In this document: one piece after another, positions 20,292-62,686 of the stretch | Numbering within the stretch: the stretch's first letter is position 1 | Layout of the letters: each line of letters starts with the position of its first letter | Virus record (IMG/VR): IMGVR_UViG_3300031555_000648 | Location: 20,458-84,457 of that record | DNA: 64,000 nt | Direction: 5' to 3' (one strand) | Origin: a virus | Taxonomy: Duplodnaviria; Caudoviricetes | Translations under genes and position numbers: made by a program | The notes under the pieces: generated by a model | Database searches by the model: none | What the model was told of the DNA's origin: nothing | The model's input: the letters and a program-made list of their open reading frames with translations, nothing else

Positions 20292-21773
20292 CTACTTCGC
20301 AATGACATTCTCTGCTTTAACAACACCTGTTACTGCACCTGTCTTCTTGGTACTGAAAATGACTCCCTTGTCATTAGTTCCTCTGTAGTAGAGAGTACTC
20401 TTAAACACCCAACTTGGAATGGTCTTTCCATTATAGTAGGTAGTTCCTGCTTTAAGAGTAATTACATCACCCTCTTTGAGTTCTTTCTTAACAGGAGCAG
20501 GGGCAACAGAAGTCTTCACCTTTATATACTCTGGGTTCTCTAAGTAGATATATCCATCTTTCTTAGAAGCATAGGACTTTAAGAGACCCCAACCATCTAC
20601 AACTTCAACGATTGTGAATACACCCTTACCTGTCTGACCCACAACATTGTCTCCCATTTTAGGCTCTTTTCTGATGTTAAGGTCATCAACTAAAACCTGT
20701 ACAGAGAATGGTGTTGCAGGGAACTTCTGTGTCTCTTCTTTTACTGTGCTACCACCAAGTCTAGCAGTAACAGTGTTTGCTAAACTCATAAGTCTTCCAT
20801 AGAGATAATCCCCCGGACAACTCTTGTTAGCAAACCATCTGTGAACTGTTAAAAGCATTTCATCACTTGCAGGAACATAAGCAAGTGCTTTAGCCTTATC
20901 AGCAATCCAGATTAACTTGGTCTTCTTGTTACGCTTGCAAATATCAACACATAAGTCCACCAACTTATTGTAAACAGTGCTGTTTACTGCATAAGGGTGT
21001 GTCTTGTCCGAAGCACACTCAATAGTAACTGCTCTCTGGTCATTGGCACTAGAACTACTGCACCAACTTCTGTTTGCTTCATCAACACACAAAACAACTC
21101 TTCCGTCATAACCAATACCATAGTTACAACTTGCTTTTCTGCTAGGACTTGTAAAACAAGAACCAATTCTTTCAGCAGATAACTGTCCTACAACAACGTG
21201 TGGAGTAATTCTGTCAATCTTTTTAGTTCTCACACCACTGTGATTAGGACTCATCACTCTGCAATTTACTAAACTACTATTGCTCATAGTCTTTTCCTCC
21301 TTTACTTTATCATATTTTGTCAAATCCCACTGCTCAAGCACTCTGTACACATTCTCAACATACTTGAGAGAAGTGGCATAGCCATCTTCTTTAATGAGTT
21401 CTAAGTACTTGTGTGGGTCTTCAACACCTTTGAGGTTCTCATAGTTTGGAATATTGATAAACTGAAAATATCCAAGGACACCATCTTTCATATTATCAAA
21501 AGCATACCATGCTGTTGTGTTAGGAAGAGGTGTATAAGAACCATCTTTGTTCTGTTCTGAACCTCCATCTTCAAAATAACCACTGTTACAGGTCACTCTG
21601 TTCTTTCGGTATTTTAAGCCAAAGTAATTATGGTACTCCGCTTTCTTTGAAGTACCATAACCACTCTCTAAACACGCTTGTGCAATAATAGGACTACACA
21701 CTTTAATACCGAACATTGGTGCAAACTCTTGTACATGACCTGCAATAGCTTCAATAAACTCTTGCTTTGTCAT
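20292..21773 (-). CDS. multidomain endolysin: GH73 glucosaminidase, Amidase_2 and SH3-like binding domains
   Basis: IIAQACLESGYG/NYFGLK/GYATS; ITPH...SCNYGIG...TIEC...HRWFANKSCPG. Confidence 0.9.
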   Translation of the reverse strand: MTKQEFIEAIAGHVQEFAPMFGIKVCSPIIAQACLESGYGTSKKAEYHNYFGLKYRKNRVTCNSGYFEDGGSEQNKDGSYTPLPNTTAWYAFDNMKDGVLGYFQFINIPNYENLKGVEDPHKYLELIKEDGYATSLKYVENVYRVLEQWDLTKYDKVKEEKTMSNSSLVNCRVMSPNHSGVRTKKIDRITPHVVVGQLSAERIGSCFTSPSRKASCNYGIGYDGRVVLCVDEANRSWCSSSSANDQRAVTIECASDKTHPYAVNSTVYNKLVDLCVDICKRNKKTKLIWIADKAKALAYVPASDEMLLTVHRWFANKSCPGDYLYGRLMSLANTVTARLGGSTVKEETQKFPATPFSVQVLVDDLNIRKEPKMGDNVVGQTGKGVFTIVEVVDGWGLLKSYASKKDGYIYLENPEYIKVKTSVAPAPVKKELKEGDVITLKAGTTYYNGKTIPSWVFKSTLYYRGTNDKGVIFSTKKTGAVTGVVKAENVIAK

Positions 21774-58105: not shown

Positions 58106-59758
58106 TTACTTCTCAATATTCAAAGCGTCCACAAGACTGTCAATTACCACTCTAATGTCACTAGCACCTGTTCCGATTGCACTGTATGTGTTGATAACTT
58201 CTACAATTCTCTCGGAGAAGCCTGTGATAAGGTTCTTTCTGTAGTCATCTGTATTGATGATTGCAAAATTGTTGCCAAGCAGGTTGTTGACATACACTTT
58301 CTTTACAACACCTCTCTTGATAAGGTCATTCACATTGTCATCACAGGAATAACCCCAACCTCTTGTAAATGTGAAAGAGTTACCATTGGAAGAGTAACAA
58401 TCATTATCAGAAAGAATAATGAGGTTAGTGTACTGTGTACCACTTCTCTTGATTTCAGCTAATGCTACATCAAGATTTGTGCAACCACCCACATTCTGAC
58501 GCATAATCTCTCTCATAATGTCCATAGTAGTGGACTTAGTAGAAATATTATGCACCATGGTACATCTGTTTGCAAACACATACACATCTGCAATGCCTTT
58601 CTTGAAGCAGATAGCACCTAACATACAAGCAACTTCATAGGCTGTCACTGCTGACATAGAAGAGATATTGTGCTTCATAGAACCACTAAGGTCTACTAAA
58701 ACTGCACTGTAGCCTACAATGTCCTGTAAGTTGTCAATAGATAAATCTAATGCTTCAACTAAAGCGTCAAGAACTCTTCTCTTACCCATTGAATTAGGTA
58801 ACTTATCAACCTCTTTGTATGCACTGTAAAATCTGAATGGTAACAGTCTGGACTTCTGTACCTCTTTCTTGTCGGTCAGCTTTGCAACAATACTGTCCAC
58901 AGCGTTCTTATCACTAAAGAGACCCTGCTTATCAAGTGCTACAAGGTTCTTCACAATAGCCATTACTGTAGAAGTGTCAATACTCTTCACCACGTCTTTC
59001 TTTGTGGTCTTAGAGTTCTTGTTATTGACCTTGGCAATCTCACTCTGAACTTGTGCAGTGTCAGCACCCATCTTCACTCTTCCCTCAATAATATCTTTGT
59101 AGAAATCTCTTCCTACTCTGGACTTTCTTGGGTCTGGGTGTAACAGCTTGATTGCGTCTGCCATGGACACCTGCTTGCTCTCACCAAGTGCTTTAGATAA
59201 CTGATACTCATTAAAGGACTCTAACTTGCCCTTTAAGGTCTTTCTCATCTGCATTGGAAGAGGTGTTTCTCTGTGCTTATTCTTGCCCCTGCCTTTGGCT
59301 GTGAAGCCATACACATTCATCTGTGTAGCAAGAATATCAAGAATATCTTTGCCACGTCTGATAATGTAGTAAGCATAGGACTGTAACTTGTTCTTACCTG
59401 TCTTCTCATCTACGAACTCTTCACCTTTAAATCGGTCATCATTCATACAGGCTGTTAAAACTGCAAGTGGGTACTGTATCATGTTGTACTCACGACCAAG
59501 CTGTGCGATTTTGAGTACATACTCAATATCATCATCATGCACCTGCTCAATGGTCTTGCACAACTTCTCATAGTCACCTTCTGCTGTTCTCTTCTCATAG
59601 TGAGTACTCTCACCAAACAGAGAACCTAACACTCGGCTAAATAACTGCTCAAGTGCGTCAAGTTTGTGCACAGTAGTACCATGGTGATTAACAGTAGTCT
59701 TTCTGTCCTTGGTAACACTTCTCTGTGCTGTTTTCTTTGTGTTGTTCATTGTTGCCAT
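58106..59758 (-). CDS. Ro60-like TROVE/vWA RNA-binding protein
   Basis: FNEYQLSK...MADAIKLLHP, SRLLPFRFYSAY, ALDLSIDNL...VLVDLSGSM (MIDAS), LIILSDND; start MATMNN after GGAGGT. Confidence 0.88.
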   Translation of the reverse strand: MATMNNTKKTAQRSVTKDRKTTVNHHGTTVHKLDALEQLFSRVLGSLFGESTHYEKRTAEGDYEKLCKTIEQVHDDDIEYVLKIAQLGREYNMIQYPLAVLTACMNDDRFKGEEFVDEKTGKNKLQSYAYYIIRRGKDILDILATQMNVYGFTAKGRGKNKHRETPLPMQMRKTLKGKLESFNEYQLSKALGESKQVSMADAIKLLHPDPRKSRVGRDFYKDIIEGRVKMGADTAQVQSEIAKVNNKNSKTTKKDVVKSIDTSTVMAIVKNLVALDKQGLFSDKNAVDSIVAKLTDKKEVQKSRLLPFRFYSAYKEVDKLPNSMGKRRVLDALVEALDLSIDNLQDIVGYSAVLVDLSGSMKHNISSMSAVTAYEVACMLGAICFKKGIADVYVFANRCTMVHNISTKSTTMDIMREIMRQNVGGCTNLDVALAEIKRSGTQYTNLIILSDNDCYSSNGNSFTFTRGWGYSCDDNVNDLIKRGVVKKVYVNNLLGNNFAIINTDDYRKNLITGFSERIVEVINTYSAIGTGASDIRVVIDSLVDALNIEK

Positions 59759-59799
59759 GATTTTTACCTCCATATTTTCTATGATTACTATGTATAAAT

Positions 59800-59828
59800 A
59801 AAAAAGGTCAACACTCAATGTGTCAACC
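59800..59828 (-). terminator. intrinsic terminator ending the three-RNA unit
   Basis: GGTTGACAC-ATTGA-GTGTTGACC then TTTTTT. Confidence 0.8.
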
Positions 59829-59845
59829 CAATTATTTCTATCTTC

Positions 59846-60002
59846 AAAGTAGCAGGAAGAAAAGCGTTATTGTTGTGTATCTGTTTTTGACAGTTCCGTA
59901 GACTGTTGCCTTACCATTTGGCTATCTGTCCTATTGGTGGACGGAGTTGGAGTCGAACCAACATAAATGATGTAAACAATAACTACACAATCCTACTACT
60001 TT
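59846..60002 (-). ncRNA. scaffolded RNA A carrying a circularly permuted tRNA-Arg(ACG) (Y-RNA-like candidate)
   Basis: 12-bp outer stem, UUGUGUA/GCUUUUCU loop, 9-bp stem; inside, the order is T arm, acceptor 3' strand plus CCA, acceptor 5' strand, D arm, anticodon arm. Confidence 0.8.
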
Positions 60003-60014
60003 AATTACAGCTTA

Positions 60015-60143
60015 ATTGGGAGAAAAACGATAAAGTCATAAAGGCTCATACAATGAGATTTGAACTCATGTTAATTCCGTAAAAGGGAATTGTCTTAACC
60101 GCTTGACAATATATGATGTAGACTTATATCTACACAACCCAAT
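60015..60143 (-). ncRNA. scaffolded RNA B carrying a tRNA-like cloverleaf with UUU anticodon (60045-60116)
   Basis: AUUGGG/CCCAAU stem, UUGUGUA/GUUUUUCU loop, inner stem, full cloverleaf with a tRNA-Glu-like body. Confidence 0.8.
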
Positions 60144-60156
60144 ATTATTTTCGTCA

Positions 60157-60285
60157 GCTTACAGAGAAAAGTGGTAAAGAGATTGACTTATCACAACAGG
60201 ACTCGAACCTGCAACACTTTGTTTAACGGACAAATGCTCGACCATTGAGCTATATGATGTAATCTTTACCTACACAACTGTAAGC
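60157..60285 (-). ncRNA. scaffolded RNA C carrying a tRNA-Asn(GUU)-like cloverleaf (60188-60259)
   Basis: GCUUACAG/CUGUAAGC stem, UUGUGUA/ACUUUUCU loop, GGUAAAGA/UCUUUACC stem, cloverleaf with loop CCGUUAA. Confidence 0.8.
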
Positions 60286-60307
60286 ACTTTGTTTTTCAAC
60301 TGTGGTT

Positions 60308-60336
60308 ATCATATCACACTTCTTAAAAGCTGTCAA
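60308..60336 (-). promoter_or_regulatory. consensus SigA promoter driving RNAs C, B and A
   Basis: TTGACA-17 bp-TATGAT with extended TG. Confidence 0.85.
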
Positions 60337-60567: not shown

Positions 60568-60650
60568 GGGGTAATACAGGACTCGAACCTGTAACTTATG
60601 CACATAGTTAATGAGTACTCTCATTGCTTTGCCTGTTAAGCTAATTACCC
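60568..60650 (-). tRNA. tRNA-like RNA with 4-nt anticodon loop (AGUA) and long variable arm
   Basis: Perfect acceptor, D and T arms; anticodon stem ATGAG/CTCAT closes only 4 nt. Confidence 0.7.
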
Positions 60651-62010: not shown

Positions 62011-62514
62011 CTAAAATGGACTATATTCTTGCAAGTACGCAAATTCTCCATGGTGTTTTAGTGCTAATTCGTTATATAATTTAACAGCTTCTTCCTCTGA
62101 ATACACAACTTTCTCAACACGATTTCCTTTAGGTGTTCTAACACGAACCTGCCATCTGCTCTCGTCTAATTGTCTTATATTCTTATATTTCTGCTTGCTT
62201 GTAGACTTCTTACCAACATTGTATTGGTTGAAACGATTATCACTCACCCTCAAGTTACTTTTTAGGTTATTTAGTCCATCATGGTCTCTATGGTCAACAT
62301 ATACTTTAGGGTCTGTGACTCCCATAATCTCTCTGTGCATATAAATGGTCTTTTGTGTTCCATTTTTATGCTCGACTCTAATTGCATATTGCCATTTTTC
62401 TGACTTGAACAAACACCATGAATACTGACTCAATCTTTCATAGTCCTCTTCGTCAACTCTCACATATTCACCACTGAATAGTTTTATGACTCGTCCTGTT
62501 TTCTTTAACTTCAT
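62011..62514 (-). CDS. HNH-AP2 homing endonuclease
   Basis: YMHREIM...VDHRDHDGLNNLKSNLR; C-terminal AP2-like EEEAVKLYNELALKHHGEFA. Confidence 0.88.
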   Translation of the reverse strand: MKLKKTGRVIKLFSGEYVRVDEEDYERLSQYSWCLFKSEKWQYAIRVEHKNGTQKTIYMHREIMGVTDPKVYVDHRDHDGLNNLKSNLRVSDNRFNQYNVGKKSTSKQKYKNIRQLDESRWQVRVRTPKGNRVEKVVYSEEEAVKLYNELALKHHGEFAYLQEYSPF

Positions 62515-62686
62515 TATAACACCTCCTGTCATACCCCACCTATATAATATCATATCCACATTTCTACGTCAACAATTTTTCCTGTAATTTTTCAAAATCG
62601 ACTCAATCCATACCTCAAAATATTATCCAATAGTGTGACACTAGGTGCAGGTGTGTGGTGTTGGAGACCAAATAAAGGGTGGGGTC

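Follow-up and report, generated by a model that had tools for sequence, protein, structure and literature searches.

The RNA elements described here lie in a 64,000-nucleotide (nt) stretch of DNA from a phage of the Caudoviricetes (positions 20,458 to 84,457 of IMG/VR record IMGVR_UViG_3300031555_000648), referred to below as the window. The virus record as a whole comprises 84,457 base pairs (bp) and is judged 98% complete; the phage comes from the human gut, and its relatives were drawn from human-gut metagenomes. Within the window, an array of three structured RNA units is followed by a gene for a Ro60 protein, which is the next open reading frame (ORF) after the array. Array and gene are all on the minus strand, as is every other window feature for which coordinates are given below. 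A sigma-70-type promoter at 60336-60308 (TTGACA, 17 nt, TATGAT, with an upstream extended TG and 11 of 12 consensus matches) precedes the units, and an intrinsic terminator at 59829-59795, made of a 10-bp hairpin (59829-59805) and a T run, separates them from Ro60. The interval between these signals is ~480 nt long and holds all three units, so that the bracketing of three units of one architecture by a promoter and a terminator, proposed in the original prediction for this DNA, is borne out. The promoter position is equally present upstream of the arrays in related loci L004-L006, and relatives have a hairpin of other sequence at the site of the terminator. Because no consensus promoter follows the terminator, Ro60 is probably expressed by read-through. 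The style of the promoter and ribosome-binding site, together with the nearest bacterial homologues, provides only a hint toward Clostridia as hosts.

All three units follow a common plan. An outer stem of 6-8 bp, an internal loop and an inner stem of 8-10 bp form a shared module, which we call the handle, and a U(U)ACAUCAU motif then leads into a second domain, the cargo. The 5′ side of the internal loop is UUGUGUA, and it lies opposite ACUUUUCU, GUUUUUCU or GCUUUUCU (consensus RYUUUUCU); the sequence of the inner stem differs from unit to unit. Inner stems of 9-10 bp had been anticipated, and although their pairing is real, the range of lengths had to be widened at its lower end. Unit 1 (60285-60157) scores 115.6 bits with CM R1, a covariance model built from units whose tRNA-like domain is wired in the direct order, and reads GCUUACAG, UUGUGUA, GGUAAAGA, UUACAUCAU and, beyond the cargo, UCUUUACC, ACUUUUCU and CUGUAAGC. 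Its outer stem pairs 60285-60278 with 60164-60157, its 5′ and 3′ loops occupy 60277-60271 and 60172-60165, its inner stem pairs 60270-60263 with 60180-60173, and the UUACAUCAU motif is at 60262-60254. Unit 2 (60145-60013; 107.2 bits) carries its 5′ loop at 60137-60131, its 3′ loop GUUUUUCU at 60028-60021, an inner stem in which GAUAUAAGUC (60130-60121) pairs with GACUUUAUC (60037-60029), and the motif UACAUCAU at 60120-60113. In unit 3 (59998-59850), whose handle scores 54.9 bits with the same model, GUUAUUGUU pairs with AACAAUAAC in the inner stem and the 5′ loop UUGUGUA is accompanied by the 3′ loop GCUUUUCU. Pairing between the UGUA of the 5′ loop and the UACA that follows the inner stem was considered and is unsupported, as a G-to-A change in L138 is left uncompensated.

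A tRNA-like domain is present in each unit, as had been predicted, and that of unit 3 proves to be circularly permuted, which the original prediction did not mention. The domain of unit 1 (60259-60188) has the anticodon loop CCGUUAA, with C at position 33, and that of unit 2 (60116-60045) combines a tRNA-Glu-like body with a UUU anticodon. ARAGORN and the Rfam tRNA model (gathering score 29) call these domains as Asn GUU at 58.1 bits and Lys UUU at 60.3 bits, respectively, and neither unit encodes CCA. The domain of unit 3 (59962-59890) matches the linear tRNA model only in part (25 bits). It is a complete cloverleaf in permuted order, consisting of a T arm (59962-59946), the acceptor 3′ strand (59945-59939), ACCAAUA (59938-59932), the acceptor 5′ strand (59931-59925), a D arm (59922-59908) and an anticodon arm (59906-59890) with ACG at 59899-59897. 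The variable loop is the point at which the cloverleaf is open and joins the handle, and ACCA is encoded inside the closed acceptor loop.

The ORF at 59758-58106 encodes 550 amino acids behind a GGAGG ribosome-binding site and is a true Ro60, with TROVE HEAT repeats arranged in a ring, plus a von Willebrand factor A (vWA) domain, as originally predicted. This identification is based on Pfam, on sequence matches in the PDB and on the fold. TROVE (53.8 bits; cut-off 23) and a C-terminal vWA_Ro60 domain (30.5 bits; cut-off 27.7) both exceed their curated cut-offs, and the best PDB sequence match is the Ro60 protein of Thermus phage phiLo (9KOP/9L5Y, E 1e-13). An AlphaFold model (predicted local distance difference test 87.4, predicted template modeling score 0.87) shows the HEAT-repeat ring closed by the vWA domain and can be superposed along its entire length on the Ro60 proteins of Xenopus, human and phiLo and on Deinococcus radiodurans Rsr. 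Foldseek searches with this model returned 1YVP, 2I91 and 9NFA at E 1e-17 with template modeling (TM) scores of 0.66-0.71, 9KOP with TM scores of 0.60/0.70, and 2NVO at E 2e-13. The metal ion-dependent adhesion site of the vWA domain (DxSxS, T, D) is intact: among 40 homologues with identities down to 23%, D356, S358 and D451 are invariant and S360 and T427 nearly so. By tblastn, no cultured phage carries a Ro60 of more than 27% identity and no bacterial genome one above ~27%, and a blastn comparison of the operon with cultured phages matched only tRNA-Asn-like pieces. A separate observation concerns one of the distant homologues. In a metagenome-assembled genome of an uncultured member of the Clostridia, a full-length OLE RNA (L176:2012-2596; 383 bits) is located ~400 nt upstream of a TROVE/Ro60 gene whose product is ~27% identical to that of the window. 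We know of no earlier report of an OLE RNA beside Ro60.

Searches with the Ro60 protein, with DNA patterns and by exact-protein look-up yielded ~25 distinct related loci (designated by L and a number), with arrays of 2-4 units. In every locus that reaches Ro60, the array is upstream of this gene and on the same strand, with Ro60 identities from 100% down to 34%. The position is directly upstream in nearly all cases and ~2 kb upstream in L139, where a HEARO RNA (91.6 bits) and an RRXRR HNH ORF form a mobile element (L139:678-1352) between two handle units and Ro60. A scan of IMG/VR with the array pattern returned eight true arrays, each accompanied by Ro60, and 14 further matches that are due to chance and have neither handle nor Ro60. 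CM R1 gives 107-126 bits for direct units and 38-58 bits for permuted ones, and in four whole phage records (76-86 kb) it found units inside the array only. A pairing-aware handle detector likewise produced no match in 976 kb of unrelated viral DNA or in the 551 kb that surround 80 distant bacterial Ro60 genes. Scaffolds independent of Ro60, which would have spoken against the original prediction, were thus found in nothing that could be searched. Scanning with the 5′ half-motif alone was too unspecific, since its 120 matches were mostly due to chance and L113 was the sole real array among them; an apparent double match in L085 is coding DNA.

This linkage bears on the possibility that the handle serves a factor other than Ro60, such as a processing nuclease or another phage protein, and that the two are adjacent because they share a tRNA gene region. 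The loop in the window lacks the canonical CGAA, and in L139 an inserted mobile element leaves 2 kb between the units and Ro60, both of which would suit such an arrangement. However, the association of handle and Ro60 persists as protein identity falls from 100% to 34% and the neighboring genes vary, none of four whole genomes has a handle anywhere else, and the loop grades into the canonical Ro60 motif, as described below. We therefore regard this explanation as very improbable and as the least likely of those considered here.

Across 20 direct units, paired cells make up 98.4% of the two handle stems and the T arm, and compensatory changes occur in 17 of 19 pairs; of the 14 pairs that belong to the handle, 13 show them. 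The paired share fell to 70% when columns were shuffled and to 40-55% when partners were slid, and the pairing is therefore not due to chance. The earlier suggestion that stems which differ in sequence yet keep their pairing reflect selection on RNA structure is supported by these figures. Permuted units from the relatives (n = 22) were parsed arm by arm in a script; pairing reaches 100% in their T, D and anticodon stems and 92% in the acceptor stem, with two to four pair types per position. All 22 retain a C32-U33-NNN-R37-A38 loop frame and a covarying 5-bp anticodon stem. Two types of permuted cargo can be distinguished. In the D type, to which unit 3 belongs, 10 of 13 cargos have NCCA directly behind the acceptor 3′ strand, and C-type cargos have a closed acceptor loop and no CCA.

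No unit matches an Rfam family at its gathering score, and the strong match to an already described family that could have undercut the original prediction was not obtained. Below that threshold, unit 1 aligns end to end with the Deinococcus_Y_RNA model (RF01053; 30 bits, E 0.0066, gathering score 80), unit 3 scores 19.5 bits with the YrlA model (RF02553; gathering score 69), and the best relative, a permuted unit of L011, reaches 38.4 bits with YrlA (E 4e-7). The units nevertheless have the features by which Y RNAs are recognized, namely a Ro60 neighbor on the same strand, a stem that joins the 5′ and 3′ ends and contains a conserved internal loop, and a tRNA-like second module. The original prediction observed that the loop does not resemble the known Ro site. 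This holds for the window, but in relatives whose Ro60 is 34-42% identical, CUGCGAA, UUGCGAG or CUGCGUA stands exactly where the window has UUGUGUA. Given this series, we read the 5′ loop as a diverged Ro60 motif in which CGAA has become UGUA, and from these alignments the motif looks diverged rather than absent. Alignment to the YrlA model had suggested ACAUCAU as the counterpart of GNCGAA, but this assignment was dropped because L253 and L256 show CGAA-type loops at the 5′ loop. UUACAUC may instead be a second Ro60 contact.

Because relatives with CUGCGAA and UUGCGAG tie the loop to the CGAA motif, the units are placed within the known Ro60/Y-RNA kind (YrlA, Yrn1 and phiLo Yrl), of which they are a divergent branch invisible to Rfam and not a new category. 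The comparative data support the earlier claim that these are Ro60-linked Y-RNA-like genes. The further claim of a new Y-RNA class does not wholly survive, given these sub-threshold alignments and the fact that tRNA-mimicking Y RNAs beside Ro60, phages included, have been published (PMC4201824, which reports 22 phages with Ro60 and upstream Y-like RNAs; PMC12135203). YrlA (RF02553; Chen et al. 2014, PMC4201824; Wang et al. 2018, 10.1101/312249) also has a same-strand Ro60 neighbor, has 5′ and 3′ ends that pair into a protein-binding module, is found in phages too, and wires its tRNA mimic as unit 3 does, in the order T arm, acceptor stem-loop, D arm. In Mycobacterium smegmatis, YrlA has a 7-bp acceptor stem, is cleaved by RNase P and receives CCA in vivo (PMC4201824). 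Differences from YrlA are the replacement of GNCGAA by UUGUGUA, a longer handle with two stems around a conserved internal loop plus UUACAUC, an opening at the variable loop and not in the anticodon stem, which leaves the anticodon arm complete, and a CCA that is encoded inside the acceptor loop. D. radiodurans Yrn1 (RF01053) is wired in the direct order (PMC4201824) and resembles unit 1 in its D-like region, anticodon-like hairpin and T arm and in its long, bulged Rsr-binding stem. Its D arm is partial, however, and its 'anticodon' loop has 6 nt, whereas units 1 and 2 are full cloverleaves called by tRNA finders. Thermus phage phiLo (PMC12135203; 9KOP, 9L5Y) likewise carries several Y-like RNAs directly upstream of its Ro60 gene, each with a module of stem, internal loop and stem, and its Yrl1 and Yrl2 bind both Ro60 and the host polynucleotide phosphorylase (PNPase). 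The two Ro60 proteins are only ~20% identical, the Yrl RNAs carry CGAA, and tRNA mimicry, anticodon display and cargo exchange are not described in the accessible part of that report.

Within one operon, a single kind of handle thus carries both the direct and the permuted wiring. Circularly permuted tRNA genes and two-piece tmRNAs, in which the 3′ half with CCA is followed by a linker and then by the 5′ half, mature into a working tRNA or tmRNA. As in these RNAs, a cut inside the linker of unit 3 could free a tRNA-like acceptor end. Here, by contrast, a conserved handle with linkage to Ro60 locks the ends, and the Rfam tmRNA_permuted model gives only 8 bits on the permuted unit.

Comparison among relatives reveals that one conserved handle carries interchangeable cargo, in agreement with the original prediction. 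Handles swap cargo types, as in L170 and L171, where a D-type handle bears a C-type cargo, and handles in L138, L253 and L255 are joined to short non-tRNA cargo (23-60 nt), to a cargo of ~560 nt, or to none. The handle at L253:1890-2420 combines the outer stem UCUGGG/CCCAGA with the 5′ loop UUGCGAG and the inner stem GUAUAAGA/UCUUAUCC and apparently surrounds the ~560-nt cargo, for which there is no Rfam match at E <= 0.1. The cargo-less mini unit at L255:2325-2375 has an outer stem, the 5′ loop UUGCCUU and the 3′ loop CCUUUCU around nothing but a 7-bp hairpin, and lies just upstream of a Ro60 gene at 38% identity.

The anticodon is exchanged as well. Cargoes with Asn, Lys and Arg anticodons, as named in the original prediction, are not a conserved property of these arrays, because the anticodons differ from phage to phage. 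In the lineage of unit 2 (class B), the same Glu-like body displays ten triplets among 17 distinct sequences (UUU, UUC, UUA, UCC, UCA, GUA, GCA, AAC, GUU and GUC), and class D anticodons include UUU, GUU, GCU, ACG, UGA, GUA and CGA. Unit-2-type RNAs with UUA or UCA, which would read the stops UAA and UGA, occur at L169:344-472, L170:1045-1181 and L166:1426-1554. ORFs of the window read normally under translation table 11. Position 33 among unit-1 orthologues is C in the window, G in L168 and U in L001, and the anticodon loop of unit 2 in L001 has 8 nt. In direct units, the 5′ acceptor strand consists of the invariant handle motif, regardless of the anticodon. Although tRNA finders recognize the cloverleaves, the 7-nt loop with U33 and the anticodon kept among orthologues that are expected of a decoding tRNA are not maintained. 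On these comparisons, decoding tRNAs are an unlikely identity for the units.

The rate of anticodon change was estimated from nearest neighbors that were paired greedily, with pairs less than 8% divergent being kept. In class B, 5 of 12 anticodon sites differ compared to 7 of 510 other sites (Fisher p = 1.8e-6, in a test that is not tree-based). The loci of these pairs differ by 3-5% overall, which means that the triplet changes at ~10 times the average rate of the genome, whereas the remainder of the RNA stays below that rate. For example, L005 and L164 differ in all three anticodon letters and in a single other base of 129. A diversity-generating retroelement elsewhere in the genome was rejected as the source of these changes on the basis of their pattern, which is not adenine-specific. 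Since neutral drift cannot exceed the neutral rate, the anticodon letters seem to matter, and this turnover suggests an anticodon-reading partner. Phage tRNAs that evade anticodon nucleases (PMC10264068, PMC11555353) offer a parallel, as they too are tRNA-shaped RNAs whose loops evolve under host defenses that target tRNA. Those tRNAs, however, are free and decoding, and keep their triplet while neighboring loop bases change, whereas here it is the triplet itself that changes on a constant body bound to a handle.

These observations also bear on an alternative in which the RNAs are generic tethers that connect Ro60 with an exoribonuclease of the host, such as PNPase, for the decay of structured RNA, with the tRNA shape being no more than a suitable fold and the anticodon letters being irrelevant. 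Ro60-Y RNA-PNPase complexes are formed by D. radiodurans Yrn1 (PMC4201824) and by the Yrl RNAs of phiLo (PMC12135203); the architecture of a handle plus an effector module is the same, and the non-tRNA cargo in relatives indicates that a tRNA shape is not obligatory. A tether of this kind would not account for the loop frame and covarying anticodon stem in 22 of 22 permuted units, nor for the speed of triplet change in class B. The alternative is weakened accordingly, and we consider it rather unlikely.

The explanation that we favor, and hold with moderate confidence, is that the units are Y-RNA-like partners of the phage Ro60, with the handle docking on this protein and the tRNA mimic being shown to tRNA-reading proteins. 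The three units would be transcribed as one operon from promoter to terminator, just upstream of Ro60. Their first module, the shared handle, would be a diverged form of the canonical Ro60-binding module and would most likely dock the RNA on Ro60. Their second module would be an exchangeable cargo, which in this phage is predicted to fold into a tRNA mimic with a proper 7-nt anticodon loop, wired directly in units 1 and 2, like D. radiodurans Yrn1, and permuted in unit 3, like YrlA, with the opening at the variable loop. The mimics could then present a tRNA shape and anticodon loops to tRNA-reading proteins of the host or the phage, and these proteins or their activity would thereby be tied to Ro60. 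Because phage tRNAs are known to counter such defenses (PMC10264068, PMC11555353), the leading candidates for the partner are host defense nucleases that cut tRNA. A more specific version, which we offer only tentatively, is that the Ro60 particle acts as a programmable bait whose handle is fixed and whose anticodon is retargeted by point changes to the defense nuclease, or another tRNA-reading enzyme, of the local host. Such a particle might sequester the enzyme, or pass the enzyme or its products to Ro60-associated decay.

Several findings weigh against the explanation that we favor. With 58-60 bits and acceptor stems of 7 bp, units 1 and 2 pass as good tRNAs, so that RNase P and 3′ processing could release tRNA-sized molecules from them, and ordinary tRNA genes stand between handle units in L006 (1865-1937) and L010 (1762-1834 and 1967-2045). 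All matches to Y RNAs in Rfam are far below gathering scores, and the canonical Ro60-site motif (GNCGAA(N)G / GGUCCGA) is absent from the window, which has UUGUGUA instead. Anticodon turnover is significant in class B only, with class D not reaching significance in close pairs and classes A and C being constant, and the sample is small (13-17 distinct sequences per class). The displayed triplets also go beyond known nuclease targets and include Pro, Ser, Gly, Cys and two stop-reading triplets. Finally, RtcB, polynucleotide kinase (AAA_33 kinase) and a dedicated RNA ligase are absent from the phage, which has only an enzyme of the DNA-ligase type.

In another alternative, the units would be precursors of working phage tRNAs, with the handle being a leader-trailer duplex that stabilizes or directs processing and Ro60 being at most a chaperone for folding or quality control. 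Consistent with this idea are the canonical D and T loops of units that reach 58 and 60 bits with the tRNA model, the 7-bp acceptor stems, the real tRNAs interspersed in the L006 and L010 arrays, and the NCCA encoded in 10 of 13 D-type cargos. Moreover, M. smegmatis YrlA is cut by RNase P and gains CCA in vivo (PMC4201824), and phage tRNAs replace host tRNAs cut by defense systems (PMC10264068, PMC11555353). Nevertheless, a one-piece tRNA is impossible from the permuted units, C-type cargos have a closed acceptor loop without CCA, and the handles of L138, L253 and L255 hold cargo other than tRNA, or no cargo. In direct units, the invariant handle motif sets the 5′ acceptor strand independently of the anticodon, unit 1 does not conserve U33, and a Glu-like body with GUA, GCA, AAC, UUA or UCA would be uncharged or mischarged. 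Precursor tRNAs are thus a weakened explanation, and to us a less likely one than the tether to an exoribonuclease.

Other features of the region were noted in passing. One of the tRNA genes inserted in the L006 and L010 arrays is a tRNA-Glu(UUC) that resembles the cargo body of unit 2. In the window, the Rfam tRNA model gives 48.9 bits for a tRNA-shaped gene at 60568-60650, whose acceptor, D and T arms are good; a 21-nt insert occupies its anticodon region, and no anticodon can be assigned to it by ARAGORN. An ORF for an HNH endonuclease (62011-62559; PHROG 99, E 3e-22) is located at the edge of the tRNA gene region.

The role of the tRNA-like domains of bacterial Y RNAs has been a question since 2014, and this phage clade provides an unusually readable case of them, in which the mimic is complete to the anticodon loop, both wirings occur on one handle, cargo is exchanged, and the triplet turns over rapidly in one lineage. 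The presence of two wirings on one handle bears on the published view that YrlA and Yrn1 had independent origins. The loci also extend the Y-RNA family beyond the reach of Rfam detection, with UUGUGUA in place of CGAA, and this motif should aid the annotation of 'tRNA' or intergenic stretches beside TROVE genes in gut phages. The features of the clade point to partners that read anticodons and supply a natural allelic series for binding and rescue assays. If the Ro60 particle does act as a bait for such enzymes, this would be the first concrete function for the tRNA-like domains of Y RNAs.

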